In this document: positions 19,692-49,907 of the stretch, piece after piece | Position numbering within the stretch: the first letter of the stretch is position 1 | How the letters are laid out: each line of letters starts with the position of its first letter | Assembly: GCA_000002445.1 (NCBI GenBank) | Contig: CP000071.1 | Coordinates: 160,001 to 224,000 of the forward strand | Direction of reading: 5' to 3' | DNA: 64,000 nt | From: Trypanosoma brucei | Taxonomy: Eukaryota | Notes under the pieces: model-generated | The model's database searches: none | The model's input: the letters and a program-made list of their open reading frames with translations, nothing else | Told to the model about the DNA's origin: nothing | Position numbers and translations under genes: made by a program

Positions 19692-22600
19692 TCAATCATA
19701 CTCCGTCAGAAGTTTCAGACTCAATCCTTCGATAACAAAGCAGCCGAGAGCATCCATCAGAAGGATTTGAAGAAAGCGTTCGCGAAATTCCTTAGAGGGG
19801 AAAGCTACAATCTCGAACGATTGATTTAAGGTAGGATCCATTTCTGAGGCGAAGTAAAAGACAGCAAGAGCCAATACGACCAACGAGTAGAACATTGGTC
19901 TATTCTTTCTGATACTCTGCATGAAAGGCTCGCCCCTGTAATTAACAGCAAATGTGACACCACCAATAAGTGTGGTGAGTAAGAACATTGCCGAATTCAG
20001 TAAAGTTGGCTTGAACTCCCCTTCAGCACCCGCTTGCCTCATCGTTGCCACGCCCTCCGCATCTGCCTCCTCCACCAACCGCACGGTTTCCACCATGCTA
20101 TATAAGTGCAAGCCAAACTGCATAAAAATGGTGCACATCATGTAAGGGTGGAACACCTTCGTGATCGGTCTCTGAGGACAGAGTGTGGGCATTGGTTGAC
20201 TTTTCGACATGCACAGGAAGCAAACTGTGAGAATAATACCTGACAGAATCATTTGACTTTCACCGTGCTTCACACCATCCATTTGCAGCACGGACATCGA
20301 ATACGCAGAAGTGAGACAGTTAAGAGCGAGAATCTTGTACATTTGCAGCGTTGTTACGAGTGTGCTACGACCGAGGCGGACAATATCGCAAACGGATGTC
20401 AGCGCCCTGGAGCGACACGTGAAGGGAGCGGCTATGGAAGCATCACCCAACTTAACTTGCGGTGCTCCACCCATATCCGCATCGTCAGCGTTAAAAATGG
20501 ACTCCATAAGAAAGTCAGAAGCGGGAGCATTCATCTCAGGTTGGGAAGCAACCTTTCCTGCCTCTGCCGTTTTCCTCGACTTTTTGCTCTCCTCCAGTTG
20601 TTTGTTCCAGCGAGCGATCTGAACAATTTCCGCCCTGCGACGGGCTTGGGCCATTTTATGCCTTACCTGCTCCATGAACGGTGCATCAGCCGATGGAGCC
20701 GGAGGAACGACCGTCAACTTAAAACCTGGGGGAATTTTATGATCTTTGGGGACATCAGGTTCATTGTGTGGCTCGTTAGAGTTATGCTCTCCGCTGCCTC
20801 CAACGTTTTGGGACGCGTCCATCGACGTGGCGTTGAGAACGGCTATGCCCGCATGCGCCTGCTTGAGGGCGCCAACATCATTTGTACCATCACCCGCCAT
20901 AAGCACCATGTGTTCCTTTTGCTTAAGATCAGTAACAATATCTTCCTTATGCGTGGGTGCGCAACGGGCCCACACTGCTATGTGTTCGCTGTATTGTGCA
21001 ATGAGGGTAGCCAAAGTCGTAGTCGGTATTGACTCCGCATTTACGCAGAGATCCCACTCATCATCCGAAGGAACTTTGTGCCGCCTTGTTTGTACAAATG
21101 TTTTCGCAAGGATGCTGCGACGATCAAGGTTTACCTCTTTCCCTGTAGCCGCATCGGTCCATACAATACAATCATCGACTTCGTCCTCTCCATTGCCCTT
21201 TTTTTTCATACTGCTGGCAACAAGTTGTTGGCGACACTTTAGTATTGTTACGTCCCGTCCCACCGATATAGCCGTTTGTACGCTGTCGCCCGTAATAATA
21301 ACACAACGGTGACTTCCACTCTGAAGCATTTCAATAGTGTCTTTGGCATCTTTCTTGAGTGGACACTGAAAAACAGCAAGTCCAGCAAATATCAAATTCT
21401 TCTCACAATCCTCTCGGTCCATGTTGTGAATGGCTTCCTTTGACCGCTCTTCCTCCTTAAGGGGACGATACGCAAGTGCGATAACGCGATAGCCCTTAAT
21501 GGCGTGTGCATTAGCTACAGAATGAAAGTCCGGAGGTATACTTTCACACAGTTGAGCAATGGCTTCCGGCGAACCCTTAGCCACAACATACTTTCCGTCC
21601 GGAGCACTTACAATACATGGCATACGCCTCAGGTTAGCCAGGAACGGAAACCTTACAAGTATTTTGTATTGTTTTTCGAAACCGCTGTTATTTTTTCGAT
21701 TTTGGGACTTGCTTGAGCCAGAGGTTTCATTCTTACTACTACCGGTGGTACTTTTCCCTTTGACGTCCTCCTTTTGAGCCGGTGGGTCGTACACCACAGT
21801 GTCATCAATGTTTACCCTGTAGCCAAGGGCTCCGAGGGACGCCTTTTCCATAGCATCACCAGCGACTGTGTCCGTGCCCTCAAGTTGAAGTAGAGAGTGG
21901 CATGTGACTAGTACTAATTCGGCTTTGGGTGGAACTGTTTTGAGTGTATTCAAAAGACCTTTGCCATCTGCCATGTCAACACCACTAAAGAGCATTTCAT
22001 CTGTGGTGAGAGTCCCAGTCTTGTCAAAGCAACATGTGTCCACTTTGCCAGCATATGGAATGCGGAATGGTTCAGTACAGAATACGTTTTGTTTGACAAG
22101 ACCAAGTAGGGCAGTGTTGACAGCCAGTGTAAGTTCCATAGGAAGCTCAGGTGGTACGACAGCGGTGATAATTTGAATGCACGCAAGAAAAAGCTTCCAC
22201 CGATCGCGATTGGGGTCTTCGAGTCCACGCTTGAGGAGGTAGCCAGAAGCCATCAACGCAAAGACAAGAAGCAGTCCGATGAAACCAAAAGCCTCCCCAT
22301 TGTTTTCACTGGCCCGTTCCTGGCTGTGAAGTATGGTGCGCAGAAGCTTTCCCTGTTTAGTTTCGAATCCCGTCTTGAGTACAACAGCCAAAGCTCTTCC
22401 GCGTTCTGTGTCGCTCTGGCCGTGCGGACCGTTACTGAGCAGTAGCTGTGTGCCTGAGTAAAGAAGATGACGCGCATGCTTCTTCATCTCCAGTGGAAGA
22501 TTCGCAGCGTCAATTGCCTCTTTCAACTGCGGTGTCGACTCACCCGTAAGCATTGCCTCATTCACAATGCATGTGCCGCGGACCAAAATAACATCAGCAG

Positions 22601-24410: not shown

Positions 24411-25391
24411 TTACTTACAGCGGAGAAGCCGTGTGGCCTCTTCACTACCCGATGCAGCGGCTGCTTCCAACCATTCACGCGACTTTCCTCGCAGTTCAGC
24501 CACTGTATTATCATCACACACACCCACTGCCCTAGAAGCCGCCGCTTCTGCCGCCCGCCAAAGTAATTTCCCCACGTTCAACTGCGCCATCGTGTGTCCC
24601 AACTCTGCAGCACCACGGTACAACCTCAGTGCTTCACCCCAATCTGATGGTAGACATTTACCACCTATTTCTACACCATCTTCATACATCACCCCGAGTT
24701 CGTACATCGCGGGAGCATAACCCGAATCCGCAGCACGTTCAACCCATGTGAGAGCTGCAGTTAAATCAATTGGGACACCTACACCATCGCGCAGACAGAG
24801 ACCCACTTGTAGCATCGCCCCGGCGTGTCGTGATGCTATGGCGCTGTCAAGAAGTTTCAAAGCATCATCTATGTCCCCGGGGGCGTTCTTCTGTTTCAGA
24901 AGAAACTCTGCCAGTGGCACCGTTACTAAAGAGAGTCCTGAGTCTTTTCCAGTGGGAGTGCAGTTGTTCATACAAAAGGACTTGAGGATTGACGCCGCGG
25001 CGGCTTCAGTGGAGGCTTCACAGGCCTGCACCAGCGCCAACACGTGCGGCCGCGGGGCAGCGGCAGCCGACAACGCCGATGAGGCGCGACTTGGCGGGGC
25101 AGCGGCTTTTCGCATCCGCCGGCGTCGTTGCAGCTCTGCCAGAACTTGTTGCACGTCGTTTTCAATAACAGATCTATCAGTTTGGTCCTTTGCATGCAGT
25201 AAATATCGAAGTTGCTCTTCCAGGCTTCCATGTTGTTGCGTTGGTACCGAAAAAGTTGTGGTGGAACTGTACAAATCTTTTGGTCTGGGCGCTCGAAGGC
25301 CTTCGGTTGGAGGTGAAGGTTTCAACACACGTGTTTGCAGCGTGGAAATGGATCTAATGTCCGTTTGCATTGAGGCACGATGTCCGGACAT
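24411..25391 (-). CDS. Sel1-repeat (TPR-like) protein
   Basis: The C-terminal half carries tandem Sel1-type repeats (AMYELGVMYEDGVEIGGKCLPSDWGEALRLYRGAAELGHTMAQLNVGKLLW; ...ALTWVERAADSGYAPA). Confidence 0.6.
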   Translation of the reverse strand: MSGHRASMQTDIRSISTLQTRVLKPSPPTEGLRAPRPKDLYSSTTTFSVPTQQHGSLEEQLRYLLHAKDQTDRSVIENDVQQVLAELQRRRRMRKAAAPPSRASSALSAAAAPRPHVLALVQACEASTEAAAASILKSFCMNNCTPTGKDSGLSLVTVPLAEFLLKQKNAPGDIDDALKLLDSAIASRHAGAMLQVGLCLRDGVGVPIDLTAALTWVERAADSGYAPAMYELGVMYEDGVEIGGKCLPSDWGEALRLYRGAAELGHTMAQLNVGKLLWRAAEAAASRAVGVCDDNTVAELRGKSREWLEAAAASGSEEATRLLRCK

Positions 25392-25681
25392 CTCTACAAC
25401 TAGCTTTCATACATTGTTTTTTTTAAAAAAAAAGAAATTGAAAGCAGATTCATCTCGAGACTGATTACTTAAACGCACACGCAAGTAACAGTTGCAATAG
25501 ATGATTGTTGAATTGAATAGCACCCTTAATAAATAGTACCCCATCCCAGTAATATGAACAGATGCCATACAAATGCGTTAAGTTGTCCCCCTACTTTTTT
25601 GCGTATTAAAAGTGAAGAATAAATTAAAGAATAAAGCGTGAGGGCAATCGAAAATATTAAATGAAACATAGTGATCAGAGG

Positions 25682-31286: not shown

Positions 31287-34283
31287 TCAGTTCACCCTTC
31301 GGGCGCGATTGCATAAATACGCGATCGAACAGACGCGCAACCCAATGGCTAATGCCCGCGCCGCGAGCTCAACGGTTTCCGTGCAAACGTATACCGCGCC
31401 GTTTCCGCTATACCTGCTTACAAGGAAAGAAGCAAACATTAATGTGGAGTGATGCTGCTCTCGAGAGCGCTCGCCGAATCCGATCACACTCGGAGCATCC
31501 TTTTCACCCGTATCAGGGGACGAGTTTAGCATTAGTAGTGGAGACAGCGACCTCCATTCTTGGATCACCGGCGGAAGCGAATTAGCCTCGCCCTCACGCT
31601 GTTCATCCAAAAGAAAGTCACATTTTGCATTTTCCATAATGCTAAGAGCACAGCTCACTACTTCAACAAAATCATAGCTAAAACCAGTCGAACATGGAGT
31701 GCTAGAGCAAGTGCTGCAGAAACTATGAAGTGTTGGCGTCGTAACGCTGCTCACTTCCTTAACATCCGTCGACGCCAAGAACAGTAGTTCTTCCTTCACC
31801 ACTCGCGGAACTCTCATCATGTTCCCGCGTTCAGTAAATATTGTTTGATACAATGATGTGGGACCCGTCATGTTAGTTAACGCTAGTAGCGACGTCGTGT
31901 CCATTACTAACAACGCACCCTTTACGCGTGCCGCATCTTCCGTGTTGGACAGGACTCGTCGGCGCAGAGTTGAAAACATAATGTATTGCGGCATGTATCT
32001 CTGGCGGAATTGCTCTACCATGCAAGAAATATTTTCAGCGTCATAGGTAAGGTTTTCCACGACCTCTTTCTTGACGGCACCTCCGTTATCATCATCCGAG
32101 GCTTCGAAATCCTCAACATCGTATGGACCCCAAGGATTCATTTTGTTTCCGTTGTCGATAAGTTTTTTTTCTGCCTCCCTATGCTCGGTGCCGACAAACT
32201 CCAGTGCCCTGTAGTATGCTAATGCCTTAATGTTGGGATTCACCCGCTGGGCGTCGAAGTTTTCAATCACCAGGTTCGCCACGTCAGTACACCGTGAAAG
32301 GGCCACATATGCTTGTCCCTCCTCAAAAATACCGGCGAAGTCAACATTCACATGCGAAAGAGACATGCCCTGTGACTTGTGTATAGTAATAGCATACGCC
32401 AACTGAAGAGGAATCTGAATGCTGCAACTAACATCAGAGTCGCCTTGACGCATTGTCCATCGATGTGGTTCAATTACCACCAACCGACCAGCAGCCGCAC
32501 CACCACCATCTCCTGGCCCCTGCTTACCTTTGTGATCGAAGCGAACTACTGGTAGCATCATGTGGTCAGCCAAATGTTGCAGGTCATCCTTCGTCGAAGG
32601 ATTTGCGGTCTGATGTAATTTGCTGCTAACGAAACTTTCGACGGTTCCAATACTACCATTCGCCAGACCGGCACTAAGATCCAGGTTAGCTAGAAGCATC
32701 ACACGGCAACCAGCTCGCACGGATACCGTGGAAGGCAAGTCAGATGGGAAATGACCCTCGCCACGGTGCGCCCCCTTGTAGCTGTAAATCTCTGTGTCGA
32801 GTTCACCAAACTTTTCTGTGTTTATGGCATCAACCTCAGAACGGCGCGCACGCAAGATGGTGAAACCATCCTGACGTTGTCGTCGCGTTCTACCCTTACT
32901 GTCCGTAATAATGTCAACAGCTTCAGCTCCTACCTCCCGTTTCAACTTCAGTTTCTCCTCATCGACAAACGATACAGTGGTAATGACCGATAATGAGCTT
33001 AACAGCCCAAGAGACGGGGCAGTTAGGGCGCCAACACGAACTTCGTTAAGAAGCGAGAAGAATTCCTTATCCTTCTGCCTGAATTGATGAGACAACGTGC
33101 ACACCAGCGGGTTGACGCGGGGCCAAGACTTCGCTTCAAAACACAGGCGAGTTTCTTGTTTAGGGCTGTGCTTATTTACCGGTGGAAGCTGCAGAAAATC
33201 ACCGGATAGCACCAACTGAATACCACCAAAGGGCTTTCGACACCCTCGAATGTGCCGTGCGACGTACTCCAACATGTCAAAGAACCATGCATCCAACATA
33301 GATACCTCATCCACAACGAGCACGCGGCACTTTCTCCAATTAGCCCTAGCTTTCTTTCGTCCAAGAACATTTCTATATACCATTTGATGTGTGCTGGTAT
33401 GTTGGTCAACGAAGCCACATCCTGAAAAACTGTGCAGTGTCGTCCCACCCAAATTAAGTGCCGCTAACCCGGTCGTTGCGGTGACGAAGGTGGTGGAAAG
33501 TGGTAGTGCAGCAATGATTGCACGAAGGAGGTGGGACTTGCCCGTACCTGCACCACCAGTAAGAAATACGGAGCGGCGGTGGTTTACGACAATATCAAAG
33601 ATACGCTCTTGTTCGTGAGACAGCTCCCATTCCGGCACTTGTGTGACAGCTTGTTGGGCCTGTTGTTTTGGGGTGCAATTAGACGAAGACGAGTCAAGTA
33701 AAAGCTTTCCTCTCTGTTTCGACGCTGCAGTGGTGGTGTTGTCGACGTTCTCCGAAGCCCCGCATCCCCCATCATCGTTCTGCTGCGAAATTCCGGCGGA
33801 TTTCGATGCTGGTGGAGAATGCTTATTAACGGTAACGTGGTTCAGGTTCAGTTTACTAGAATCAACTCGCTCTTCCATGTCGCAGGAATGCAACGCCAAA
33901 TCAGATTGTGCTCCGTTGTTTTCTGCGGGCCCTTGAGCATCTTCCGTGCGCAAACGAGACAGAACCTCAGCCTGGCTAGCTTGAGACAAGTCGTCACGTT
34001 GCCGCTTCGTCATAATAACCACATTGTTGTCACTGGCTGCGTTGCTGTCACCGCTCATCTCCAACTGAGAGCTGGTGGCAGGTAACTGTTGCTCTTCGAT
34101 ATAACCAGCAGACGCCTGACCTTGAAGAATTTCAGATGCGGTTTCCCCCTCGGAAGGGGAAGTAGTTGTGGGATGTATGGCAGATTGGGTGAGGGGACAA
34201 CCAGACGAGCGAAGCTTCGCAACTGTACGCAGGTTCTGGCGACTTCGTAGCGGCCCATCCCACATCTGAGAAAAATTCCACAA
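31287..34283 (-). CDS. PIF1-family 5'-3' DNA helicase
   Basis: 998 aa. Walker A VFLTGGAGTGKSHLLRAI, Walker B VLVVDEVSMLD, and PIF1-type motifs (GDFLQLPPV; ITIHKSQGMSL). Gln-rich N-terminal extension. Confidence 0.85.
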   Translation of the reverse strand: MWNFSQMWDGPLRSRQNLRTVAKLRSSGCPLTQSAIHPTTTSPSEGETASEILQGQASAGYIEEQQLPATSSQLEMSGDSNAASDNNVVIMTKRQRDDLSQASQAEVLSRLRTEDAQGPAENNGAQSDLALHSCDMEERVDSSKLNLNHVTVNKHSPPASKSAGISQQNDDGGCGASENVDNTTTAASKQRGKLLLDSSSSNCTPKQQAQQAVTQVPEWELSHEQERIFDIVVNHRRSVFLTGGAGTGKSHLLRAIIAALPLSTTFVTATTGLAALNLGGTTLHSFSGCGFVDQHTSTHQMVYRNVLGRKKARANWRKCRVLVVDEVSMLDAWFFDMLEYVARHIRGCRKPFGGIQLVLSGDFLQLPPVNKHSPKQETRLCFEAKSWPRVNPLVCTLSHQFRQKDKEFFSLLNEVRVGALTAPSLGLLSSLSVITTVSFVDEEKLKLKREVGAEAVDIITDSKGRTRRQRQDGFTILRARRSEVDAINTEKFGELDTEIYSYKGAHRGEGHFPSDLPSTVSVRAGCRVMLLANLDLSAGLANGSIGTVESFVSSKLHQTANPSTKDDLQHLADHMMLPVVRFDHKGKQGPGDGGGAAAGRLVVIEPHRWTMRQGDSDVSCSIQIPLQLAYAITIHKSQGMSLSHVNVDFAGIFEEGQAYVALSRCTDVANLVIENFDAQRVNPNIKALAYYRALEFVGTEHREAEKKLIDNGNKMNPWGPYDVEDFEASDDDNGGAVKKEVVENLTYDAENISCMVEQFRQRYMPQYIMFSTLRRRVLSNTEDAARVKGALLVMDTTSLLALTNMTGPTSLYQTIFTERGNMMRVPRVVKEELLFLASTDVKEVSSVTTPTLHSFCSTCSSTPCSTGFSYDFVEVVSCALSIMENAKCDFLLDEQREGEANSLPPVIQEWRSLSPLLMLNSSPDTGEKDAPSVIGFGERSREQHHSTLMFASFLVSRYSGNGAVYVCTETVELAARALAIGLRVCSIAYLCNRARRVN

Positions 34284-35480
34284 ACCCTAAATTCTATGTC
34301 CGCACGGAGGAATCCTTATGTGAAGATAATATAAAGGTTGGGTAAAGAATGCTCATTCAGGTGGCCATTACTACCCCTTCCACTTACCAAGTAGAAATGT
34401 TCGTGACAGTGCTACCGAATTTTGATAACATAAATAGGGTTTACCTCTCGAAATTGTTCAACCAAATCGTTCTAAAGGATAACTCCTTCTGTTTCTCCTT
34501 TAAGCCATGCATTAAAGTTTACTGCAACCCAATAAAAAGGCGAATCACCAAGCGGTTACAACAAATGAAAAATAAATGTGGGATAAGACCGTCGTACCTG
34601 CACGAAAAATATGATAACTCACAAGCCCGTCAAAACGATGGTTGGCATCTCAACACGTGTCACAAACATCCCTGAGAGAGTGCTTTAAAGGTTTAACCAA
34701 AGAAGAAAACAAACGCAAAAAAAAAAAAGGCGTCCATTACAAAAATAAGATAACAATGGGGTAAAGCGAGTGGTCTTCCCCCAAACTCCTTTAGCATATG
34801 TACGCACTGTAGCATGTCGAAGGAGCAAGACATAAGTTGCATCATTACGAAAAAGTGGCATTAATATAAAAAATTGTGTGTCCCAATTTGTATAAATCTG
34901 CTTGCCCTCATTCTTTCCCCCGCTTGCAAGGAAAAGTTGAGCCTTGTTCTTTTTTTTTAAATTTTTTCAGTTAAACTGTAACCGCGATGCGCATTCGCCA
35001 ATAATCATGTGTAAGGGAGAAAAATGACACACACACTAATGGCATGAGTCAAATAAATGCGGCACACCTCCCAGAAAGACGGCATAATACACTAAAACTA
35101 ATGATAGGAACAAAAAAGGAAGAAAGGAAGAATGTTTTTCCTTAAATGAAAGAATTTAAAAGATTTTGCAATGAAAGTTTGGAGTGTGCCACAACTGACA
35201 AATCGCCAGGGGGACCCAATACCGATTAAAGTTTATTCACCTCATATGGTGACATAAAGGCGACAGAGAAAAAAAAAAAAGTAAAACAGAGTACAAAAAT
35301 TGTGGTTCGTGAGATGTAGAGGAAACGTACAAGGGACGCACAAAACTGATGTGTGTTGATTTTTGAGAAAGCTGTGTGAAAGATTAAAAAAAAACAATCT
35401 CCTCACTGCAACATCAATTCCTTTTCCCTTGACCATTCTTCAAGCATTGGTGGCGGTTTCCCGTTCCACACTCCTCCCCA

Positions 35481-35508
35481 CACAAACACACACACACACA
35501 CACACACA
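35481..35508. repeat. (CA)n microsatellite
   Basis: cacaaacacacacacacacacacacaca. Confidence 0.95.
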
Positions 35509-36483: not shown

Positions 36484-39400
36484 TTAACGACCATCGTCCA
36501 TCAACACTTCACCGAAGGCATGACTACCCCAAATCATACTGTAATTGTTCGGTTCCTTTTCGCGAAGGGCGTTTGCGGGGGCCATGCTCTGCTGGGAAAC
36601 ATCTCCAAATACCGCGAACTCACGCACATCGGCCTCCCCTAATTTCCCACACATTTCCTTTACAAATGAATCGAACGAAGTCGTGTGTCTGCTTGCCTCA
36701 TGCGGCATTTCCCTTGACCCCTTTGCATACGTACGGTCTGCTGCCAACTTTACACCTCTGTCCATAATGTCTTCAATAAGCGAGTCATCATCCGAAGCAT
36801 CAGCGTCTTTCGTTTGTTCACCACATGTTCCCACCGGTGGTTGATGTCGCTGCACATCTGTCAAAGGTTTCGTCGTCACACGCATTCGCGCTGCAGGTGT
36901 TAAACCCATGTTGCAAGAGGAACCAAATGCTGAGAATGGGCTTGCATCAATTGCAGAGTCAATAGTTTTCTCCCCATGCTCTATTCCGAAGCGGCAGGGC
37001 TCAGTACACACCACACTTACAGGTGGGAACGAGTACGTCAAAACCGCGTCGAGCGACAACTGATCATGAATGGGGTTTCGGGCCGGGCTTGTGCGAACAT
37101 TCAACAAACTTTGGATGTCTTGCACGGTAAAGTAGCTAGCCTCCGGCATTCCCTTAGGTGTGTCCAGGAGAAAACTGAATGGTTTACTGGTGAAGGTGGC
37201 GTTGCGGAAGTACTCAACAATTGCCTTCGAGCTGCTCGGTTCCGCAAACTCCACGAAACTAAACCACAGCGTTGGGGCGGGGGCACCCAGTTCAGAGCCA
37301 TTCCTTCCCACTCCAGTAATATCCCCCTTTGGTGGAACTTGATTTTCATCACGGCACAATCGAACCTTATTAAGCTCACCAAAGTATGTAAGAAGTCGAC
37401 GAAATTGTGCTCGGCGAAGTGTCGAGGGAAGTTTCGTGATGTATACTGTTCGGTCCATCAATTCGGCCTGTGTGTAAACACTTGGGGCGTAGCCACCTCC
37501 TCGTGGACCTGAAAACGTTTTTGCGGAGTCCAGCCCCGTGGCTGCTTCAGAAAGTTGTGGCCTCACTTGTGACGCACGATGTTGCTGTTGCTGTTGTTGT
37601 TGCAAATGCTGTTGCTGCTGCTGCACCTGTTTTTGGATCAAACTCATTGCCGCGCTGCTTCCACAGTGGCGGAAGAACATTGACGGGGTCGATGCGTCAC
37701 CATGCGGTAACGAAACGGGCGTTGCTGAGTGGGGAGAGGCACATTCCACTGAGACATCGTGGGAGCTGCTGATGTCCATCGGTTCACCACGAGTGGTGAC
37801 TCGGTGAGAAGATGGCGATGTATATGTAAGACCCGGTGAACTATTACTTGTACCGTTAGCATTCACAGGTGTCACTTTCTCTATGACACGCCTTGGGGTT
37901 GGTCGAGCACTGGCACACAATGAAGAATTTCCTCCACCCTGTGCCGAGTCGAGTGGCAGCAGTCCCTCGAGACAATGGTCGTATTCCTTGCGGTACGGAT
38001 CTTTTTTGGCGCGCGACTTATTGTTCTTCCTCCACAAAGACGTGAATTCCTCTAGGCAAGCAAGCAGAATGAGGCACGGTTTGTGAACATCCTCTTCACC
38101 CTTCCCCGCTCCAAACAGGACGGCGGGTTTAGTTGATAGCGGTCGACTTCTTTCAAATTCCTTTGCACTCCTGAGCGCAACCTCGTGCTCCTTGATAATC
38201 TTGACTGCCAATTCATACGGACTTTTCTTCAAGTAACAATACTGGAAGAGATAGGCACTCAACACAGCTGCCACTTTTCGAGACTCATCTGGTTTGTCGT
38301 TGCTGATAAAGAGGTGCACGAGCGACCGTGCGATCTTCGAAATGAAAATTATGTTCCTGCCCATAATCAGGTCGGGGTCTTCACCATTTTCCACTCCCAC
38401 ATTATCCCTACCACCCCTGCGGGGGATCCGCATCTTTTCGTGGAGTGATAACAAGGCATTTACCAGTGGTGTTGAAAGTGCTTGTGCGTGGTGCCCAAAT
38501 GCAATGAGTGTGTCGGTTAACGCTGTGGCAAGTTGCTCCGCCGTCTTTTCTGTTGCCTCTGGGTTAGTAAGCAGCTGCTGCATCTTATCAGTTAACACAT
38601 TGACATCCACGACGTTGGCATGAAGCTCTTCAACCACCTCACGAAGTAGAGCATTATTCCCAACTCTAGCACATAGGTCATTCACGTCACTTGCAACATT
38701 CCTCCGAAATGGTTTTAACATCGTACCGGACTCCACTGCCGCTTCAGAGGCTGCCGTACCACTGACAGGATCTCGGCCGCTTGGTTTAGAAAGGTAGCGC
38801 GCAACCATGGGGAATAACTGCCCTTTAGCGTAGGAACCGTTCAATTTTTCAGCAGCGTCACGTGCAGTGCCCTCCTTATCGAAGAATATCAGCCCACTGC
38901 GCCTTGGGCCACCAGAAAGTTGGACAATATCTGGAAATATTTCTGCACTGAGAGCTCCATAGCGCGAAAAAAGCGCGAAAAGAGATTTTTTGTCCATCGT
39001 TGCTAACAGGTTGTGCACACCAACAAGAAACAGATCACGACCACTGTATGTCCTCTTGAAAAAGTCGTCTATCTCGTCCAACACAGCCATGTTAGATGTG
39101 TCATGCAACGCAGAGTAAGTAGCACTTGTATCATTCCCACCGGCTACGTCAGCAACTGACTGGTTACCAGCAAGCGCCACACCGCCGGGGTGAAAGTCAA
39201 ACAGTTTGTTGAGGTGAACAACATCAATTGGTTGCGCCTGTCCCTCGGGTGGTTTCAACTGAAATAACGACACTGCTTCCATCGCCGTCGCCTCTTCATT
39301 ATAGTATACCAGAGCGCTAACACTGCTGCAGGCCATAGGGGTTGTCGCGAAGCTGCATGATTTAGGGGGCCACATATCGAAGCACTCAGCACCCTTTTGA

Positions 39401-40698
39401 ATAAAGTTCTGACTTAAAACGGAATGAGCCACTTCTGGATCCAAACCGTGTATCGCGACGACGTGCTTCCCGGAGGCTCTATTCATGTGTGAATTGCTCT
39501 GAATAAAGCGGCACATTTCCATGTGTGTTTTGTAGAGTTCAGTACCTGGAGGTAACCGCCATGGCTTCGCTGAGGAGGAGAGACCCCATGTTGGCTGTTG
39601 CTGCGTACGTTGCGTTTGTTGCTGCTTTTGCTTGCCTGACATCGACGTTACACTGCGAGTTGCATCTGGAGACACTGGCAAACTTTGAGCAGGTGGCGCT
39701 TCCGGGTCACAATAGATTACTCGGAGTGGCTGGTGCTGTCCATTAGGCACAAAATCATTAAACTTCTCGACGGCCACAGCAGCAAACGCCTTAGAGGGAA
39801 AGAACACAGCACCTGCGCGTCGATTCGGACGCAGGGAGAAGTGTTGCGGCAAAATTTCTGCTTTCTTTGCATTCATGGGAAAGAATATGTTCAACAGCTC
39901 CTCCTTTGTTGTACGCGACTCGAGGTTGAAAACGGCGACAATATGGTAATTGCTGCACTCAGAAGCGAATGCCAGCATGATTTGGGAGGTGAGTGACTGT
40001 GGTGATTGTGACACAGAATTTTGGGTATTGGCGGCAGTGCTCCCGCTGTTACCACTGGAGCTGTCGTGTGAAGCCATTACGCGTACGCTGGGCGTACTCG
40101 CGGGCCATCGTGCCGCCACGTTCTTCTCTGGAGGTGCAATCATCCCATCATTTGCAATACCACCACGACTCGGAGGCCACGGCATTGCCATTGGCGTCAT
40201 TGGGGCAGGTTGACAATACAAGAGGGGGTTTTGAAGCATTGCGTGCAGATCCACTGGGTTGGGTACAGCAGGGACTGCGAAGCCAACAGCACCCATCGGC
40301 ACATGAAATTCTTTCGCCTCAGGGTTTAATGTCGACTTGGTGGATGCTGCAGCTCCGGCGCCGTCATTCACGAGGGGCCAACAGTGCGCTGCTGTAGTTT
40401 CACTTGATTGAGATGAGGTACCAGTGACCTTCTCCATCTGAATGTCATTTGCAGTGGTTAAAGAAGCGGCCTCCACCGTGAATCCTTTCTGCGTTGGTGG
40501 TTCACTGCTTGCAGGAGAAGTGAGCTGCACCGACGCTATGGATGAACCGGAGTCCCTCTTGGTTGGTTGGGGTTGAGAAACAGTGGAAGTAGTTCCTGCC
40601 GTTTCTGGAGTTATCATTTCCCAACGTAAAACAAAATACACACACGCACACGCAACAACAGAAAGAAGTTTTTTTAAAAAAAAAGCACAAACAAACAA
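36484..40698 (-). CDS. large RNA-binding-type protein with N-terminal PAM2 (PABP-interacting) motif, RRM-like regions and polyQ tract
   Basis: 1404-aa ORF. The probable true start is the internal Met MITPETAG at about nt 40617, because the first 27 codons are low-complexity leader. PAM2 motif STLNPEAKEFHVP at about nt 40297-40332. PolyQ QQQQQHLQQQQQQQ at about nt 37581-37626. Confidence 0.65.
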   Translation of the reverse strand: MFVCAFFLKKLLSVVACACVYFVLRWEMITPETAGTTSTVSQPQPTKRDSGSSIASVQLTSPASSEPPTQKGFTVEAASLTTANDIQMEKVTGTSSQSSETTAAHCWPLVNDGAGAAASTKSTLNPEAKEFHVPMGAVGFAVPAVPNPVDLHAMLQNPLLYCQPAPMTPMAMPWPPSRGGIANDGMIAPPEKNVAARWPASTPSVRVMASHDSSSGNSGSTAANTQNSVSQSPQSLTSQIMLAFASECSNYHIVAVFNLESRTTKEELLNIFFPMNAKKAEILPQHFSLRPNRRAGAVFFPSKAFAAVAVEKFNDFVPNGQHQPLRVIYCDPEAPPAQSLPVSPDATRSVTSMSGKQKQQQTQRTQQQPTWGLSSSAKPWRLPPGTELYKTHMEMCRFIQSNSHMNRASGKHVVAIHGLDPEVAHSVLSQNFIQKGAECFDMWPPKSCSFATTPMACSSVSALVYYNEEATAMEAVSLFQLKPPEGQAQPIDVVHLNKLFDFHPGGVALAGNQSVADVAGGNDTSATYSALHDTSNMAVLDEIDDFFKRTYSGRDLFLVGVHNLLATMDKKSLFALFSRYGALSAEIFPDIVQLSGGPRRSGLIFFDKEGTARDAAEKLNGSYAKGQLFPMVARYLSKPSGRDPVSGTAASEAAVESGTMLKPFRRNVASDVNDLCARVGNNALLREVVEELHANVVDVNVLTDKMQQLLTNPEATEKTAEQLATALTDTLIAFGHHAQALSTPLVNALLSLHEKMRIPRRGGRDNVGVENGEDPDLIMGRNIIFISKIARSLVHLFISNDKPDESRKVAAVLSAYLFQYCYLKKSPYELAVKIIKEHEVALRSAKEFERSRPLSTKPAVLFGAGKGEEDVHKPCLILLACLEEFTSLWRKNNKSRAKKDPYRKEYDHCLEGLLPLDSAQGGGNSSLCASARPTPRRVIEKVTPVNANGTSNSSPGLTYTSPSSHRVTTRGEPMDISSSHDVSVECASPHSATPVSLPHGDASTPSMFFRHCGSSAAMSLIQKQVQQQQQHLQQQQQQQHRASQVRPQLSEAATGLDSAKTFSGPRGGGYAPSVYTQAELMDRTVYITKLPSTLRRAQFRRLLTYFGELNKVRLCRDENQVPPKGDITGVGRNGSELGAPAPTLWFSFVEFAEPSSSKAIVEYFRNATFTSKPFSFLLDTPKGMPEASYFTVQDIQSLLNVRTSPARNPIHDQLSLDAVLTYSFPPVSVVCTEPCRFGIEHGEKTIDSAIDASPFSAFGSSCNMGLTPAARMRVTTKPLTDVQRHQPPVGTCGEQTKDADASDDDSLIEDIMDRGVKLAADRTYAKGSREMPHEASRHTTSFDSFVKEMCGKLGEADVREFAVFGDVSQQSMAPANALREKEPNNYSMIWGSHAFGEVLMDDGR

Positions 40699-43347
40699 AA
40701 TTTAGTGAAGCTTTCACAAAAGCTCAAGTTTCTCGTCCCCACAAAGAAAAATGAAAACAACAACTAACGACACTCTCCTTTTCCGATGCTAAATATTTAT
40801 TTTATTGCAGTAATGCTGTAGAAACGATGTGCCTCTCGTTTTTTATTTATTTACTTTCGTTTCTTCTCTATTTTTGAGGTTGTGCAGCGCCAAATGAAAA
40901 GTTATTCCCTTTCGATCGCGTCTCCAGCAACCAAATACTGTCGAGTTCTTTTTTTTGTTGTAGTTGTTGTTCCTGTGTTATTTTTAATTTTTAATATATC
41001 AACGCTGCTCTTTTTTTCTAAGTAATAAACAAAATGCGTAACACCGCAGCTGTTGACAAAAATGAGGTGTTCGGTGTTGTTGTTTTGATGAGAAATCTCT
41101 GCGCGGTGGTTATGCTCACAAAACACACACGCAAAAACAAAAACGAAAATAAATTCAATAATAAGAATGAAAGGACAAAGCGAGTAATCGAAACAAGGCC
41201 TTCCCAGATACAAAAATATATATGAGTGGCACACGCAACAAATGCTGCGGTTTGTGCCCTGGGGAAGTAAAATTAAGAAGAAGAAAAAAAGGAGGGTAAA
41301 AAAAGGAGGAAACAAAACAAAAAAAAACAACGACAACAAGCGAGAGTTCTGTTTGAATTCACTCGAAACCTTTCCTATTTTCTTTTAATTTTTGATATTT
41401 CTTTTCTTTCGAGGTTTCTCCTTTTCGTCTTTTTCTGACTTTTCTTTTTTTTTTCTTTTTCTGCTACCCCACTTACGCTTACCTGATAAGGGTGTTTTGG
41501 TGTAATGTAATTGCTTCTACTTCAGTTGATTCTAACCCTTTTCCTTACTTTCCTCTGCCTGTGGTTCCCTTCCTTGTGTTTTTTCTTTTATATTTTCTTG
41601 ACTCTGCCCAGGTTATTATTATTTTTTTTTAATTCTTTATTTTTGTTTTATTTATATCGTTTATCTCCTCCTTTCTCGTACTAAATGGAGGGCTTACGAA
41701 TATAATAGAAATATATATATATATATATATATACTTATATATATTTATATGTACTTTGTGCTCGATTGTGTATGTGTGTGTGTTTGTGTTTGTTTCTCTC
41801 TCTGTCTGTGTGTGTGTTTCTTTACCTTTTACTCTTTTCTAAATGTATCGAAATTCTTCTTTTCTTTTCTTCCTTTTGTTTTTTTTTAATATTGAAGAAA
41901 AAGAAAAAAATATTTCTTTTTTATTTGTTGTATAAGTGCCCTCGGTGAAACAACCTTGGTATTTCTCCACACCACAATTTCTGTTTTTGTATGTTTTATT
42001 TTTTTCTTTTTTCTTTTTTTTCTGTTTGTTTGTTTTTTTATCGCTCTCAAACAGCGCAAATTCTATCGGGTTTTCTTTTTTTTTTTCTTCGTTCCTCTTG
42101 ATTTGTTGTTGTTTTTTTTCTTTTAATTTGGAGGGGGGAGTTGATATATAGATTTATTAAATTTTGTTTTTGTTTTGTTTTGTTTTCGAAAATTTCTCAC
42201 GGAGAAGATAAAAAAAAAGAGAAAGTGATAAGTGGCTACAAAAAAAAAAAGAGCTAAGAAAAGTAGTGGGAAGCTGTGAAAATAGATTTCACGTAAAAAA
42301 AAAAAAAGTATGCGTACAAAAAAAAATTCTTCTTTCTTCTGTTCTTCAGCAGCGGCGGCTGATTGTCTTCTTCCGCTTCCTGTTTAGTATCAAACAGAAA
42401 AGACCGGAGGATGACGGAGTGAGACAAAAAAAGGAAAAGAGAAACAAAGAATTTCGGAGTGTAACTTTATATTTTTGCTTTTGTTTGATTGTTTATTTTT
42501 TTCTACTTTTCCCTTTTTTGAAAAAAAATTCTCCTTTTGTTTTGTTTTGTATTCGCAAAAAAAAAAAAACAAAACTAGAGATGTACAGACAATGGCAACA
42601 ACAAAACAAAAATTGGAAACAAAAGGAAAGAAAAGCCTAGCAGGAGCAAAGTTACTGAGTGAAGACGAACTGTTCCTTTTCCTTGTCCTCGTTTCTGCTT
42701 TGTTGTCTATTTTTTTTTCTTTTTTCCTTTTTTTAAAAAAAAAGAAAAAGACTATCCTTCTTACAAGTAAAAGAAAAAACAAACGAGGTTAAAACCTCAG
42801 TGACCCGCTGTAAATAATCGAATAAGCGCGAATTACGTGTGATGTAATGTACGCGTGGCGCGTCAAATCGGGGAGGGGGATCACATCAACAATTGATAAC
42901 GGAAGGAAAGAAAGAGAGAAAATAAAAAGGAAGAAAAAAAAGTTCGTAAAGTGTCAGGAGAAACGCAGCAAAGACAGCAATGCAAAACAGTGGGCACATC
43001 ACACAACTTAAAAGAATTATTATGATCGTAATTATTAAGACAATTATATCTGAGTACAGTAACACTGCATATCCCACACACATTTCCACCACACAACAAC
43101 AATAACAATGGTTATCGACAGCGGTATTGGTGGCATAACCTCAGAAACAACAACATCGTGATAAGAACAAATACATTTGGTTCGCTCACACACCTTTAAG
43201 ACCAAGCGTATACGTCATGGAGAAAGAAAGAGTGAATATCAACAGGTATTTCCCCCCCCCGTTTAACACTCCCTCTTACGTCGTTGTTTTATTTATTTTT
43301 TTTAAAAAAGGGGGGGGCACAAAAAAAAAAAAAGAGGAATTAAACAC
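40699..43347. other. unusually long (~2.65 kb) low-complexity intergenic/UTR region
   Basis: Poly-T/poly-A runs, (TG)n, (TA)n and (TTTG)n. It contains no credible ORF and lies between the CIA2 stop and the start of the 1404-aa gene. Confidence 0.7.
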
Positions 43348-44634: not shown

Positions 44635-45396
44635 TTAGAACCGCCCCCGCTTCCGATCGTTATTATTTCCGTTAAAGTTTGGTTTCGACTTGTTCCGCGG
44701 GGGTTCCTGGACGCCCCTCTGCTGCTGTTTGCTCTGCTGGGCCACATGCCCTTCGGATTTGCCCACCTTTTGTTTCTTAGCGGGGGGTTCCTCGTCCTCA
44801 TCCTCCTCCTTTTCTTGATCATCATCATCCTCATCTTCATCTTCATCATCTTCATCTTCATCATCTTCGTCATCTTCATCATCTTCCTCATCTTCGTCAT
44901 CGTCATCGTCACTGTCGTCTGTACGATCTACGACCTGTTGGCGCTTCGTTGCTGCGTTACCGTTCTTTTTCCCGTCTGTGAGTGGTACGCCTGCCATGTC
45001 ATCACCATCATCCAATCCCGTGTCTTCCCCTTCTTCTTCCTCCTCCTCCTCCTCAGCGTTGTCGTATTCCCCACTTCCACTCAAAGCAGCGGAAAGCATT
45101 CCTTCCGACTCCTGCTGATACCCACAACAATGAAGAACAGCATTTCCCTTCACACGGAAGACAACTTCTTGTTCATAACCAAAAACGATATCGACGGGAG
45201 TTTGCATCAGTTGCTGAGAAACGTCAAGAGTGAGAAGAGAAAACGATTCACCATCAACTGTCACATACAACGTGCTGCGGCCCTTCACACCGTGCTTTAC
45301 AGAAACAACAGAAAGGTGAAATGAGTGATGCTTTTCCAGCACCAACTTGTGTTCCTTGCCCGGAACGACCTCGAAACCATGAAACATGGGCGCCAT
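44635..45396 (-). CDS. nucleoplasmin-like (HD2/FKBP-N-terminal type) domain protein with acidic tract and basic tail; NOPP44/46 paralog
   Basis: 253 aa. N-terminus MAPMFHGFEVVPGKEHKLVL...GNAVLHCCGYQ has the same pattern as the NOPP-array N-terminal domain and plant HD2 (MEFWGxEVxxG...GSVxxxGY). It is followed by a long D/E tract (nt ~44800-44935, GAT/GAA repeats) and a basic C-terminus (KKQKVGK...RKRGRF). Confidence 0.65.
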   Translation of the reverse strand: MAPMFHGFEVVPGKEHKLVLEKHHSFHLSVVSVKHGVKGRSTLYVTVDGESFSLLTLDVSQQLMQTPVDIVFGYEQEVVFRVKGNAVLHCCGYQQESEGMLSAALSGSGEYDNAEEEEEEEEGEDTGLDDGDDMAGVPLTDGKKNGNAATKRQQVVDRTDDSDDDDDEDEEDDEDDEDDEDEDDEDEDEDDDDQEKEEDEDEEPPAKKQKVGKSEGHVAQQSKQQQRGVQEPPRNKSKPNFNGNNNDRKRGRF

Positions 45397-46139
45397 TGCT
45401 TTCTCACTTTATGCTTTTCGGTAGAGCACAAACTTGAAAAAAATATCGGGTTTCAGTTACGAAAGTAAAAAAAACGAATAATCGGATAGAAGGGGAAAAC
45501 AAAGTAAAGGAGGGATTGAAACCAGCAATAAGAGTATTAAAGAAAAAAATTAGTAGCAGCAGGTCTTGGCAAACTGAACAGTTATCAATCAACCCAATAG
45601 GCCATAGCCACCTGCAAGAAAAAAGAAGGGAGGGTCAATAAACAGAAAACTAATGCGAAGAGAACACACACCACACGTCCAATGATTTAAAAAAAAACAA
45701 AAGAGAATTGCACAGGCACATGACCCCGCACTTCACTCAAACATTAACTACCTGAAGGAAAGAAAAAAACAACATACAACGAATTACGTCACACCCTATA
45801 ACATAACATCATCATCGAAAGTACAAGTTCGCATGCCTTAGTACAACCAAAAATTAAATTTTATATCGTTACAAATGGTCAACCAACCAAAAGACACGAA
45901 AATAGATTATTCAAGATGCAATTTATGAACAGTTTGAAACGCAATCAACAAAAACAGAGAAAGATTCGCAATAAGATTTAACATATCGACTAAAAACGAA
46001 AAAAAAAAGATCAATTAGTTGTGGCCTACAAGCAAACAACAACAAATTTACAAACGATGATAGAGCAAAAGGAACAACAATATTCCAAGAGGATTAATAA
46101 CTGAAGTGAAACAACAGGTCATATTACAAAGAGCGCCAG

Positions 46140-46199
46140 NNNNNNNNNNNNNNNNNNNNNNNNNNNNNNNNNNNNNNNNNNNNNNNNNNNNNNNNNNNN
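46140..46199. other. assembly gap (60 N)
   Basis: Run of n characters that interrupts a NOPP-family copy. Confidence 0.99.
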
Positions 46200-46559
46200 A
46201 GTCAAATGCACTGAGCCAGAACCCGTGGCGGAAAGAGTGGTTCCCTGCTCTGCGGTTAACACGAGGTCGATGCCCATTTGAAATAGGCTCCGCTTGGGGT
46301 CAAGCGTGGCAATGGTAAATTCCTTCCCCTGAAAGGATATCACAAGAGTAATAGCACCACTTGCATTCGCAGGCACAGCAATTTGTGTGAGACGAAGTAC
46401 GTGGTCTTCGGGTATCTTCGGTTTGACCTTCTGCCCGGCACTCACTTCAACACCGTAGAAACCCTTCACAAATGTTAAATGCAATACGCCTTTACTAATG
46501 GAAAATACAAAATGAATCGGAGACAACGGTGAAAGCATAGATAAGGGAAAGCGTAACAC
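46200..46559 (-). pseudogene. NOPP44/46-type array boundary copy (copy A): N-terminal domain only, canonical ATG lost, 3' part missing in assembly gap
   Basis: nt 46200-46470 are identical to the N-terminal-domain coding segment of the intact copy at 49640-49907. Homology ends exactly at the start codon (ATGGAG becomes GTGAAG). The upstream flank is unrelated. The ORF runs into the 60-N gap at 46140-46199. Confidence 0.45.
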
Positions 46560-46869
46560 TGACGTACGCTACCAAACAATAGGCAAACACAGGGAAAAAA
46601 CACAGTCACATTCAATGTGTCGAAACCTCTGTGTTTTTCTGTTACCAAGCCACCTCCATGACAGGCAAATCATGTCACATCACGAACGCTTTCATTTTCG
46701 AACGCTTAATTACCATTATAGAAGCCCAAATAATCATTATTTCTACCCCACCCAATCCCATTTATGTCTCAGTTTCTTCTTCGCTCGTAAAATATCTCTG
46801 CATTTAGATGCGTTACCGATGTTTTCGTTGCTAAAACACATACTAACAAATAACAACAAATATTTACCA

Positions 46870-47158
46870 CAACTGAAGGTAGAGAAATGTGGTCGCTCAA
46901 GCGGTGCATGTCAGTACAAGCACAAACATTAATAACAATATCACAATTTCTCCATGCCTCCACGTGCAACACAACATCCGAACATGAGGGGATATATCGT
47001 CATCACACGTATCAATCATAGAACACGAGTGTAATAAGAGGTTAGCCTCGTAGTCAAATGCATAAACGGGAATAATAATGAGGCATATATCACGTATTCC
47101 ATAAGATTACTCTCTCAGTTACAACAATGCGGCACATCACATGGCACATATATCATTT
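46870..47158 (-). repeat. conserved ~290-bp 3'-flank/3'UTR segment of NOPP-family genes (copy 1 of 3)
   Basis: Near-identical sequence recurs at 48632-48920 and 50294-50582, starting caactgaaggtagagaaatgtggtcgctcaagcggtgcatgtcagtacaagcac. Confidence 0.8.
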
Positions 47159-48259
47159 TTAGTAACGACCCCTCCCAGAGTTCCCGCCGCGGAATCCACC
47201 TCTATTCCAGACCGCATTTGTTCCGCCTCTTCCGCTGTAAGGGGGCAGAGTGCGAGATGCATCGTTTAGGTGGTGATTTGGTGGGAAAGGATAGTTGTTT
47301 CGGCTGGAATAGGGATGAAAACCCCTATTTATTGCAGCAAACCCCCTTCCTAACAAATTGCTTGACATTCCTTGCCACTCACCCCCGCTATACAAGTACC
47401 TTTCTTCATTGGTATATCCCCTTCTCATTTCACCATTTGCTTGCCCTCTATACCCGCCACCCATGTAACCTCTTCCCCTACTTGAATACCCACCTCTCCC
47501 GTACCCTCTGTTCATTCCCAACTGATCCGCTTCATGGATTGGTTCATTATAAATGGCACCGAAACCACCTTGGGAAGAAGTGCTATTTATTCTCTGACGT
47601 CCACGTTGCCTGAAAAAACCCTGATGAACACCGCCGTACCCTCCTTCACCGTTGTAACGAAAGTAACCTCCCCGACGATATCTATGCTCATCCACGTGTT
47701 GTTCGTTGTGAAACTCGACTCCTCCCTCATGCCTAATTTTTGAAGGTCGCTCTTCGCCCTTATCGCCTCTCTTCCCAATTTTTTCCACACCATCATCAAC
47801 GCTCACAATACCTTCAACATCATAGTCACTTTCGCTGGTATTGTTTGAACTTTGCACTGATGTTTTACAAGCGGGCGCTACGCCACGAAAAGGCGGCGGC
47901 GCCATTTTCTCGAATGGGACACCACTGCAAATCTCACCACCGCAACTTGACTCACCATCCGTAACATTCTCAATAGGTTGTATATATCCAGTCACATGCA
48001 CTGAGCCGTTGCCAGTGGCGGAAAGAATAATATTCTGCTCTGCTTTAATCACAAGGTCAATCCCCATTTGCGATACATTCCTCACAGGATCAAGAGAAGC
48101 GATAGTAAATTCTTTACCCTGAAGGGAAACGACAAGAGAGACGGCATCACTTGTATTCGCAGGCACAGCAATTTGTGTGAGACGAAGTACGTTACCCTCC
48201 GGTATCTCTGGAATAACTTTCTCCCCGACGCTCACTTCAACACCGTAGAAACCCTCCAT
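47159..48259 (-). CDS. NOPP44/46-family divergent paralog: nucleoplasmin-like N-terminal domain plus Tyr/Gly/Arg-rich (RGG/YGG) C-terminal region, no long acidic tract
   Basis: 366 aa. N-terminus [58 protein letters not shown]...[11 protein letters not shown]. The C-terminus has RGG/GYG repeats and ends ...[13 protein letters not shown], identical to the array copy. Confidence 0.75.
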   Translation of the reverse strand: [366 protein letters not shown]

Positions 48260-48483
48260 TGCTGCCGATTGGAATGTAATTTATCTATCACCATTGCAAG
48301 TAAAAAATAATATAAACGAAAAAAGAAAACAAAACGGCACATGTTTCACGAAGCAGAAGGAGAATAGTCAAAAAAATTCAAAAAAAAAGATGTTAGGGCA
48401 ACGTAGCGCCATCTGGACAACCAGAAGCCGCAACTTCAGAAACTCCGAACGATCATTCTTACGATAGTAACGCTAGGAAGAAT

Positions 48484-48920
48484 TCACTCTCATCATTATC
48501 CTTTGTTATCATTATTATTCTTATTCACGCTGATTCATCGTTTATATTTTCTCTCCTTATATTACTCAACCATTTCTTTAGTGTCCTCTAACGCTGTCCA
48601 TAATTTCAAGCGCAAGAAAAACGTTGCACTACAACTGAAGGTAGAGAAATGTGGTCGCTCAAGCGGTGCATGTCAGTACAAGCACAAACATTAATAACAA
48701 TATCACAATTTCTCCATGCCTCCACGTGCAACACAACATCCGAACATGAGGGGATATATCGTCATCACACGTATCAATCATAGAACACGAGTGTAATAAG
48801 AGGTTAGCCTCGTAGTCAAATGCATAAACGGGAATAATAATGAGGCATATATCACGTATTCCATAAGATTACCCTCTCAGTTACAACAATGCGGCACATC
48901 ACATGGCACATATATCATTT
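48484..48920 (-). repeat. NOPP array intergenic repeat unit (copy 2)
   Basis: 48484-48920 is near-identical to 50146-50582 (tcactctcatcattatcctttgttatcattattattcttattcacgctg...). Confidence 0.8.
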
Positions 48921-49907
48921 TTAGTAACGACCCCTCCCAGAGTTCCCGCCACGGAAGTTGCCGCGATTCCCGCCACGGAAGTTACCACGGTTTCCTCCAC
49001 GATCCCCGCCACGGAAGTTGCCACGGTTTCCTCCACGATCTCCGCCACGGAAGTTTCCACGGTTTCCTCCGTTACCACTTCGGTCTCCGCCGCGGAAGTT
49101 TCCACGGTTTCCTCCACGGTCTCCGCCACGGAACCCTCCGCGATTACCACCGTTACCGTTTCGGTCCCCACCACGGAACCCCCCGCGATTACCACCACGG
49201 AACCCTTGTTGCTCAGTGCGTTGCACTTTACTGGCTGGCTCATCATCATCATCGTCATCATCATCATCATCATCATCATCGTCATCGTCATCGTCATTAT
49301 CATTATCATTATCATCTTCTTCATCATCGTCATCGTCATCGTCATCGTCACTGTCGTCTTCATCGTAGGCTTCATCATCATCATCATTGTCGTCTTCGTC
49401 ACCCGCGTCAATTCCTTCATTGTCCTTTTCAATACCTTCCTCGTCATCGGATTCGTCGTCTCCATCGACGCCGTCACCATTTGCTTCATCGGAATTCTCT
49501 TCGCTTACAGGAAACTTGGCAGATTTCCCTCCTCTTTTCGGGGGAACTCCGTAGGATTCCATATCTTCAGCATCCACCTCATCGAGATCATCTTCCTCAT
49601 CAAAATCACTTCCATCATCAACAGGTTGAACGTATCCAGTCAAATGCACTGAGCCAGAACCCGTGGCGGAAAGAGTGGTTCCCTGCTCTGCGGTTAACAC
49701 GAGGTCGATGCCCATTTGAAATAGGCTCCGCTTGGGGTCAAGCGTGGCAATGGTAAATTCCTTCCCCTGAAAGGATATCACAAGAGTAATAGCACCACTT
49801 GCATTCGCAGGCACAGCAATTTGTGTGAGACGAAGTACGTGGTCTTCGGGTATCTTCGGTTTGACCTTCTGCCCGGCACTCACTTCAACACCGTAGAAAC
49901 CCTCCAT
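48921..49907 (-). CDS. NOPP44/46: NOPP44/46 nucleolar phosphoprotein (nucleoplasmin-like N-terminal domain, D/E acidic tract, C-terminal RGG box)
   Basis: 328 aa. N-terminus [57 protein letters not shown]...[11 protein letters not shown]. About 60-residue D/E tract encoded by (GAT/GAC)n at nt ~49237-49420. Tandem [14 protein letters not shown] repeats ending GRGRY. Confidence 0.8.
   Translation of the reverse strand: [328 protein letters not shown]

Follow-up and report, generated by a model that had tools for sequence, protein, structure and literature searches.

In trypanosomes nearly all gene control is post-transcriptional and the transcriptome is partitioned between PABP1 and PABP2, and few trypanosome RNA-binding proteins are, to our knowledge, known to contact PABP directly. 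Among the closest described systems, human Paip1 has an architecture of PAM2, MIF4G and PAM1, and human ataxin-2 carries the motif STLNPNAKEFNP, which is close to the one found in DRBD17, a large, conserved and essentially uncharacterised RNA-binding protein encoded on the minus strand of a 64,000-nt stretch of Trypanosoma brucei DNA (contig CP000071.1, positions 160,001 to 224,000; this whole stretch is hereafter called the window). In Leishmania, the eIF4E4 peptide HHMNPNATEFMPGR binds the PABP1 MLLE domain with a Kd of 33 nM, E146A and F147A being the most damaging single changes, which made the binding 4-5 fold weaker (PMC6379680). In T. cruzi, the N-terminal region of eIF4E3, which carries PAM2, is a ligand of the MLLE domains of both PABP1 and PABP2 (PMC11754739), and Phe at position 10 of the motif is needed in PAN3, Tob and NFX1 (PMC2854688). 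Every residue with a measurable contribution in the Leishmania eIF4E4 PAM2-PABP1 MLLE complex has its counterpart in DRBD17 (L/N/P/A/E/F), and the conserved motif supplies a concrete hypothesis for the mode of action of this protein. We propose, with a probability of about 0.6, that DRBD17 is an RRM-anchored cytoplasmic mRNA-binding scaffold, which would dock on the PABP MLLE domain via a PAM2-type motif, offer a HEAT effector platform and lead to a mildly repressive or storage outcome.

The open reading frame (ORF) from which the first-pass annotation proceeded is indeed present at 36484..40698 on the minus strand. The protein length of 1404 aa deduced from it was an overestimate, because TTG had been accepted as a start codon under the bacterial code; this TTG at 40698, a start allowed by the bacterial code alone, lies 27 codons upstream of the first in-frame ATG at 40617. 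The coding sequence (CDS) of DRBD17 accordingly occupies 36484..40617(-) and encodes 1377 aa plus the stop codon, with which the deposited T. brucei proteins and the published cloning primers agree. The window protein is 100% identical over 1377 aa to T. b. gambiense XP_011775356, and the TREU927 protein XP_846908 / Q57YF9 ('RNA-binding protein, putative') belongs to the same cluster and has the same length, 1377 aa. In the supplementary tables of Erben et al. 2014, Tb927.8.710 is given as 'RNA-binding protein, putative (DRBD17)', 4133 nt, minus strand, together with its cloning primers (PMC4055773), which align without mismatch at 40604-40621(-) and 36484-36501(+) of the window, at both CDS ends. 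Since the published primers match both ends and the protein is identical, the locus is the annotated T. brucei gene Tb927.8.710 / DRBD17, and the earlier guess of a DRBD-type protein was right. The synteny with the NOPP44/46 genes Tb927.8.730/750/760 agrees with this identity.

Other assignments were considered and rejected. A location near TbPIF5 (Tb927.8.3560), suspected from the adjacent PIF1-like ORF, was ruled out, as TbPIF5 is XP_847187, about 279 accessions away from XP_846908; a Tb927.8.35xx placement was likewise ruled out, the NOPP44/46 cluster setting the position at Tb927.8.7xx. RBP35, a PAM2-bearing RNA-binding protein named in a T. cruzi paper, is a different gene, Tb927.9.12360. 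As to the 5' end of the CDS, one T. brucei-group assembly from the Logan collection (P0008, 1411 aa) possesses an ATG further upstream, which lengthens the ORF across what is the 5' untranslated region (5'UTR) in the window, and in the window an in-frame stop stands directly upstream of the TTG at 40698 (region 40618-40698(-)).

The PAM2-type motif and its conservation

The motif and the region that bears it are located as follows.

40297..40335, minus strand: PAM2-like short linear motif STLNPEAKEFHVP, aa 95-107, with the core L97 N98 P99 A101 E103 F104
40006..40617, minus strand: predicted disordered N-terminal region bearing the motif, aa 1-204 (AlphaFold2, composition, low conservation)

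The segment LNPEAKEFHVP at 40329..40297(-), which is aa 97-107 counted from the ATG, reads L-N-P-E-A-K-E-F-H-V-P, and its L, N, A, E and F are spaced as in the PAM2 consensus x-x-L-N-x-x-A-x-E-F-x-P. By composition, chance alone predicts about 1e-3 occurrences of the pattern LN..A.EF for this protein and about 3 for a proteome of 4.5 million residues; for the pattern LNP.A.EF the expectation is about 0.2 per such proteome. Across the six frames of the window LNPEAKEF is the sole match of its type. A phmmer search of the PDB chains with the 34-aa motif region gave no matches.

An exhaustive HMMER search revealed 43 homologues; alignments of 13 sequences (for column conservation) and 15 sequences (for invariant residues) were used. 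The following versions of the motif are found, each near the N-terminus of the respective protein.

T. congolense: KSTLNPEAKEFQIP
T. vivax: KSTLNPDAKEFHLP
T. grayi: RSTLNPEAKEFKLP
T. cruzi: KSTLNPDAKEFQLP
T. rangeli: GSTLNPDAKEFQLP
T. conorhini: SKLNPNAKEFRAP
Phytomonas: RTLNPAAKEFELP
Leishmania (Mundinia): MTLNPDAQEFHITP

More distant homologues carry the versions LNPVAPEF, LNPSAPEF and LNATAAPF, and the motif is also found in homologues of 25-35% identity. In the first 215 residues of the 13-sequence alignment, L97, N98, P99, A101 and F104 alone form columns of at least 90% conservation; these five residues are invariant in 15/15 aligned homologues, with E103 nearly invariant, and the variable columns 100, 102 and 105 are the 'x' positions of the PAM2 consensus. 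The best-conserved 13-mer of the same 215 residues coincides exactly with aa 95-107, having a majority fraction of 0.74 vs 0.31-0.32 in the flanks, a value which exceeds that of every DRBD17 RRM. The Pfam PAM2 family (PF07145) was matched independently in 8 of the 13 orthologues at E <= 1 (best 4.7e-4) and is the sole recurring non-RRM Pfam family among them. Since the distant homologues retain the skeleton PAM2-RRM1-HEAT-RRM4 with its extension, the motif belongs to an old architecture.

The surroundings of the motif are of a different kind. In the AlphaFold2 model of aa 1-640, the predicted local distance difference test score (pLDDT) is below 50 at residues 1-95 and 105-201, and within 1-201 only residues 96-104 exceed 50; the S/T/P/G/Q/N fraction of the N-terminal region is 0.38-0.62. 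The predicted pLDDT profile fits a binding motif embedded in disorder. Judged from the alignments, the motif forms the only conserved island, sharply set off from its flanks, within a predicted disordered N-terminus of ~200 residues, and the pattern of constraint matches the PAM2 contact positions.

RNA-recognition domains and the central helical domain

The RRM-like cores noticed previously proved to be genuine RRMs: Pfam RRM_1 (PF00076) matches the whole protein with 57.8 bits and E = 9.8e-16 in 3 stretches, and AlphaFold2 predicts three beta-alpha-beta-beta-alpha-beta folds with pLDDT >90 (aa 225-303, 385-468 and 530-609, corresponding to RRM1-3).

39709..40002, minus strand: RRM1 with the preceding helix, aa 206-303; AlphaFold2 fold with pLDDT >90, RRM_1 18.9 bits, conservation 0.67 (the highest of the RRMs)
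39214..39546, minus strand: RRM2 with the preceding helix, aa 358-468; AlphaFold2 RRM topology with pLDDT ~80-95, divergent
38791..39099, minus strand: RRM3 with the preceding helix, aa 507-609; RRM_1 30.7 bits, AlphaFold2 fold
36973..37467, minus strand: RRM4 with a conserved C-terminal extension, aa 1051-1215; canonical RNP2 VYITKL and RNP1 WFSFVEF, RRM_1 25.1 bits

The RRM2 segment has no Pfam match and is recognised by its fold alone, and RRM3 matches the sequences of HuD, HuC and PABP RRMs in the PDB with E = 8e-5 to 8e-4. In the 13-sequence alignment, the RRM4 columns 1057-1191 are nearly invariant, and within the extension the segment RTSPARNPIHDQ.PLDAVL (37039-37095(-), aa 1175-1193) is almost invariant. 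RRM4 with its extension is the module that DRBD17 has in common with its most distant homologues, including that of Cryptobia borreli, and may represent the ancestral core of the DRBD17 family; the distant homologues have fewer RRMs. Helices are predicted before RRM1, RRM2 and RRM3 at 206-216, 358-374 and 507-524 (38791-40002(-) in the window), and in BLAST the RRMs of Leishmania and other homologues cross-match both RRM1 and RRM3, which suggests an internal duplication of a helix+RRM unit.

The central region (aa ~641-885) is modelled confidently as 12 helices (pLDDT 83, predicted template modelling score 0.80). For aa 640-900 no Pfam family was matched, MIF4G and MA3 included, Foldseek against the PDB gave nothing significant, and a profile of the domain found nothing relevant among PDB sequences and returned an empty homology search; a search with a profile of the full-length alignment gave the same four proteins only and no further homologues. 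We refer to the central domain as HEAT-type, its assignment as MIF4G-like being unproven.

Proposed docking on PABP and its alternatives

According to the proposed mechanism, the RRMs would keep DRBD17 on its target mRNAs, RRM3 and RRM4 being the most canonical and RRM1 the most conserved of them, and the disordered N-terminal arm would dock on the PABP1 and/or PABP2 MLLE domain through the PAM2-type motif, with L97 and F104 presumably placed in two hydrophobic pockets and E103 paired with a lysine of the KITGM(F/L)LE helix. The central HEAT-type domain could serve as a docking platform for an effector, and the net outcome would most likely be mild repression or storage of the bound mRNAs, possibly linked to S phase. 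We infer here the docking on the PABP MLLE domain, the choice of the PABP paralogue, the effector used and which way regulation goes in vivo.

The published data on DRBD17 are in line with the earlier suggestion of an mRNA-fate regulator, which had been put forward together with a check of the mRNA-bound proteome lists. DRBD17 is present in the UV-crosslinked mRNA-bound proteome, and TrypTag assigns at least part of it to cytoplasmic puncta (PMC6299225). In a protein-array assay, binding to poly(A)+ RNA was seen on 2 of 3 slides and binding to total RNA on all 3, and in the tethering screen its fragments behaved as weak suppressors (17 locations, PGKB 1.86, BLA 0.48; PMC4055773). The DRBD17 mRNA is 3-fold cell-cycle regulated with a peak in S phase (PMC3069104).

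Several points weigh against the docking proposal. The terminal Pro107 of the motif is shifted by +1 relative to the canonical P12, standing at +3 after the Phe instead of the canonical +2, and regular expressions with Pro at +2 found no match. The Pfam PAM2 score is below the gathering score of 20 bits, being 15.8 bits for the whole protein and 18.1 bits (E = 0.002) for the N-terminal segment, with the alignment restricted to KSTLNPEAKEF; the sub-threshold score results from the final Pro standing one residue late. Published experiments linking DRBD17 to PABP were not found in the searchable literature, nor was any report naming DRBD17 or Tb927.8.710 as a PAM2 protein, and the paper on the PABP1/PABP2 interactomes of T. 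brucei (Zoltner 2018) does not mention DRBD17 in its main text. A proteome-wide HMMER search for PAM2 in T. cruzi names G1-IP1, G5-IP, CE1, 4E-IP2 and RBP35 and not the DRBD17 homologue (PMC11754739), an absence that the sub-threshold score would explain. In addition, the signal in the tethering screen was obtained with fragments and is weak. A match in the supplementary material of Bezerra 2022 apparently belongs to a list of genes or mRNAs, not proteins, and was set aside as having no bearing on the interaction.

What the first-pass annotation had called a textbook PAM2 is a motif that does occur at 40329-40297 with the L, N, A, E and F of the consensus, and the epithet is too strong in view of the shifted Pro and the Pfam score. 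Taken from the sequence alone, the case for PAM2 is suggestive but borderline, and it was settled in favour of a PAM2-type motif by the conservation pattern described above. A coincidental resemblance to PAM2, with the motif conserved for folding, for an intramolecular contact with RRM1 or as a targeting signal, is very unlikely: short motifs do arise by chance (about 3 instances of LN..A.EF per 4.5 million residues), and the searchable literature is silent on an experimental PABP link, but the invariant residues are exactly the PAM2 consensus positions, with the 'x' positions varying, the motif is separated from RRM1 by more than 100 disordered residues and makes no contact with it in the AlphaFold2 prediction, and the sole PAM2-type match of the window recurs in homologues at 25-35% identity. 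The shifted Pro bears on another explanation, in which the short linear motif is functional but, as a PAM2-like variant, has a reader that is different or narrower; it could discriminate PABP1 from PABP2, or bind another MLLE-type or an unrelated domain. The sub-threshold Pfam score speaks for such a variant, as does the spacing EF-x-[VLI]-P, which is kept in most trypanosomatid orthologues and is not a one-off; a parallel may be seen in Ustilago, where the PAM2-like motifs of Upa1 reportedly bind the MLLE domains of Rrm4. Nevertheless, the core hardly differs from those of known PAM2 motifs, e.g., MNPNATEF of Leishmania eIF4E4, and the distant homologues lose the shifted Pro yet keep LNPxAPEF, so that this Pro is not a constrained feature and is probably not critical; it could tune the specificity. 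No second MLLE protein is known to us in trypanosomes, no search for one having been made, and this, too, was counted against a special reader, which we consider rather unlikely.

The direction of regulation could also be the opposite one, with DRBD17 acting as a Paip1-like or LARP4-like activator or stabiliser that would sit on PABP by its PAM2, recruit eIF4A or another DEAD-box helicase by a MIF4G-like domain and promote the translation of its targets. The DRBD17 fragments were, however, depleted under blasticidin selection and enriched in the PGKB suppressor selection, and the MIF4G assignment finds no support from Foldseek, Pfam or profile searches, so that we regard such an activator as improbable. 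A broader proposal, doubtful at this stage, has DRBD17 as founding member of a scaffold family that extends across the kinetoplastids, and possibly the euglenozoans, and keeps PAM2, RRM, MIF4G-like HEAT domain and RRM with extension in a fixed order; its members would act as mRNA-specific bridges of the Paip1/GW182 type, which select transcripts, clamp PABP by the PAM2 with the shifted Pro and bring in a DEAD-box helicase or deadenylase by the HEAT domain. If true, this would let trypanosomes read or remodel the poly(A)-PABP complex in a transcript-selective way, perhaps during S phase.

Remaining features and comparison with known systems

Outside the motif and the folded domains, DRBD17 and its 5' flank contain the following elements.

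37834..37911, minus strand: a further conserved linear box, aa 903-928 (SARPTPRRV..KV.P), within the disordered linker that follows the HEAT domain
37582..37623, minus strand: polyQ tract QQQQQHLQQQQQQQ, aa 999-1012, within a linker of low conservation
40618..43347, minus strand: inter-CDS region from the MIP18-like gene to DRBD17, 2730 bp, 67% A+T, simple repeats

The residues S903, R905, P906, P908, R910, V911 and P928 of the linear box are nearly invariant in the 13-sequence alignment, and the box could be a basic, Pro-directed phosphosite or an element resembling a nuclear localisation signal. The CAG/CAA-encoded polyQ tract, placed earlier at 37581-37626, was located at 37623..37582; Tandem Repeats Finder reports it as a match at 37580-37623 with a period of 6, corresponding to the CAG/CAA repeat. 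The linker that holds it (aa 931-1050) has a conservation of 0.34 and is Q-rich in T. congolense and T. grayi and not in T. vivax, i.e., neither the length nor the presence of the tract is conserved. An acidic stretch DADASDDDSLIEDIMD (36760-36807(-), aa ~1271-1286) lies in the poorly conserved C-terminal tail, where the alignment consensus retains D..DDD.

The 2.6-kb low-complexity 5' region reported for this gene is non-coding, rich in simple repeats and 2730 bp long; it is an ordinary trypanosome inter-CDS region and not a feature of DRBD17. A strong polypyrimidine tract at 41312-41274, followed by AG at ~41259, is the last strong tract before DRBD17, and the splice acceptor is predicted at ~41259 with a 5'UTR of ~640 nt, the remainder of the region being most likely the 3'UTR of the upstream gene. 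An Rfam scan of the DRBD17 flanks found no family; microsatellites are present in the non-coding flanks, (AT)26 upstream (41700-41750) and (CA)15 downstream (35479-35508).

Immediately upstream of DRBD17 lie the MIP18/FeS-assembly gene and then three nucleoplasmin-like genes, the latter being tandem NPL-domain genes (253, 366 and 328 aa) at 44635-49907(-), which form the NOPP44/46 family cluster Tb927.8.730/750/760. The PIF1-like helicase ORF at 31287-34283(-), 998 aa long from a TTG, is distinct from TbPIF5 (Tb927.8.3560); its PIF1 domain (aa 221-420) is flanked by long extensions on both the N- and the C-terminal side. Every substantial ORF of the window (1-64000) belongs to the minus strand, except those antisense to such ORFs; the minus-strand genes include those of VWA, carnitine acyltransferase, BCNT, WD40, C2H2 zinc-finger, lipoate ligase, P-type ATPase, Sel1, PIF1-like, DRBD17, MIP18, NOPP44/46 (three) and PSME4_C proteins. 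This arrangement suggests that they are transcribed as one polycistronic unit. The ORFs of the plus strand, at 20253-21032, 24748-25464, 36976-37512 and 48903-49652, are antisense to minus-strand genes and probably spurious, that at 36976-37512(+) having been treated as such because it falls inside the conserved DRBD17 CDS.

Earlier work had already described the gene, the binding of its product to RNA and a weak regulatory activity, and the advance made here is the motif-level annotation and the domain map rather than a new system. The omission of the DRBD17 homologue from the published T. cruzi search also illustrates that threshold-based PAM2 scans overlook real candidates. The motif is of the kind known from ataxin-2 (Pbp1-type) and from trypanosomatid eIF4E3/eIF4E4, as the DRBD17 core [ST]-[ST]-L-N-P-x-A-K-E-F lies in a disordered region and its contact residues are the same as those of Leishmania eIF4E4 MNPNATEFMP, crystallised with the PABP1 MLLE domain. 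In contrast to these motifs, the Pro of DRBD17 comes one residue later (EF-H-V-P) and the Pfam score is below the threshold; the host is a multi-RRM RNA-binding protein, whereas the ataxin-2 and eIF4E-type hosts are LSm or cap-binding proteins, and there is one copy of the motif in DRBD17 against two or three in eIF4E3/4. The plant CID proteins of class D (CID8-13) resemble DRBD17 in having their own PABP-docking PAM2 N-terminal to the RRMs (PMC4574140); they are small (175-416 aa), have two RRMs and lack a HEAT domain, whereas DRBD17 is larger and has four RRMs, and PAM2 was likely gained independently in the two lineages. Human Paip1 differs in being an activator, DRBD17 having four RRMs and a suppressor score. 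A likeness within trypanosomes is offered by RBP35 (Tb927.9.12360), the product of a different gene, which is also an RNA-binding protein with a reported conserved PAM2 (PMC11754739) and was scored as a post-transcriptional repressor.

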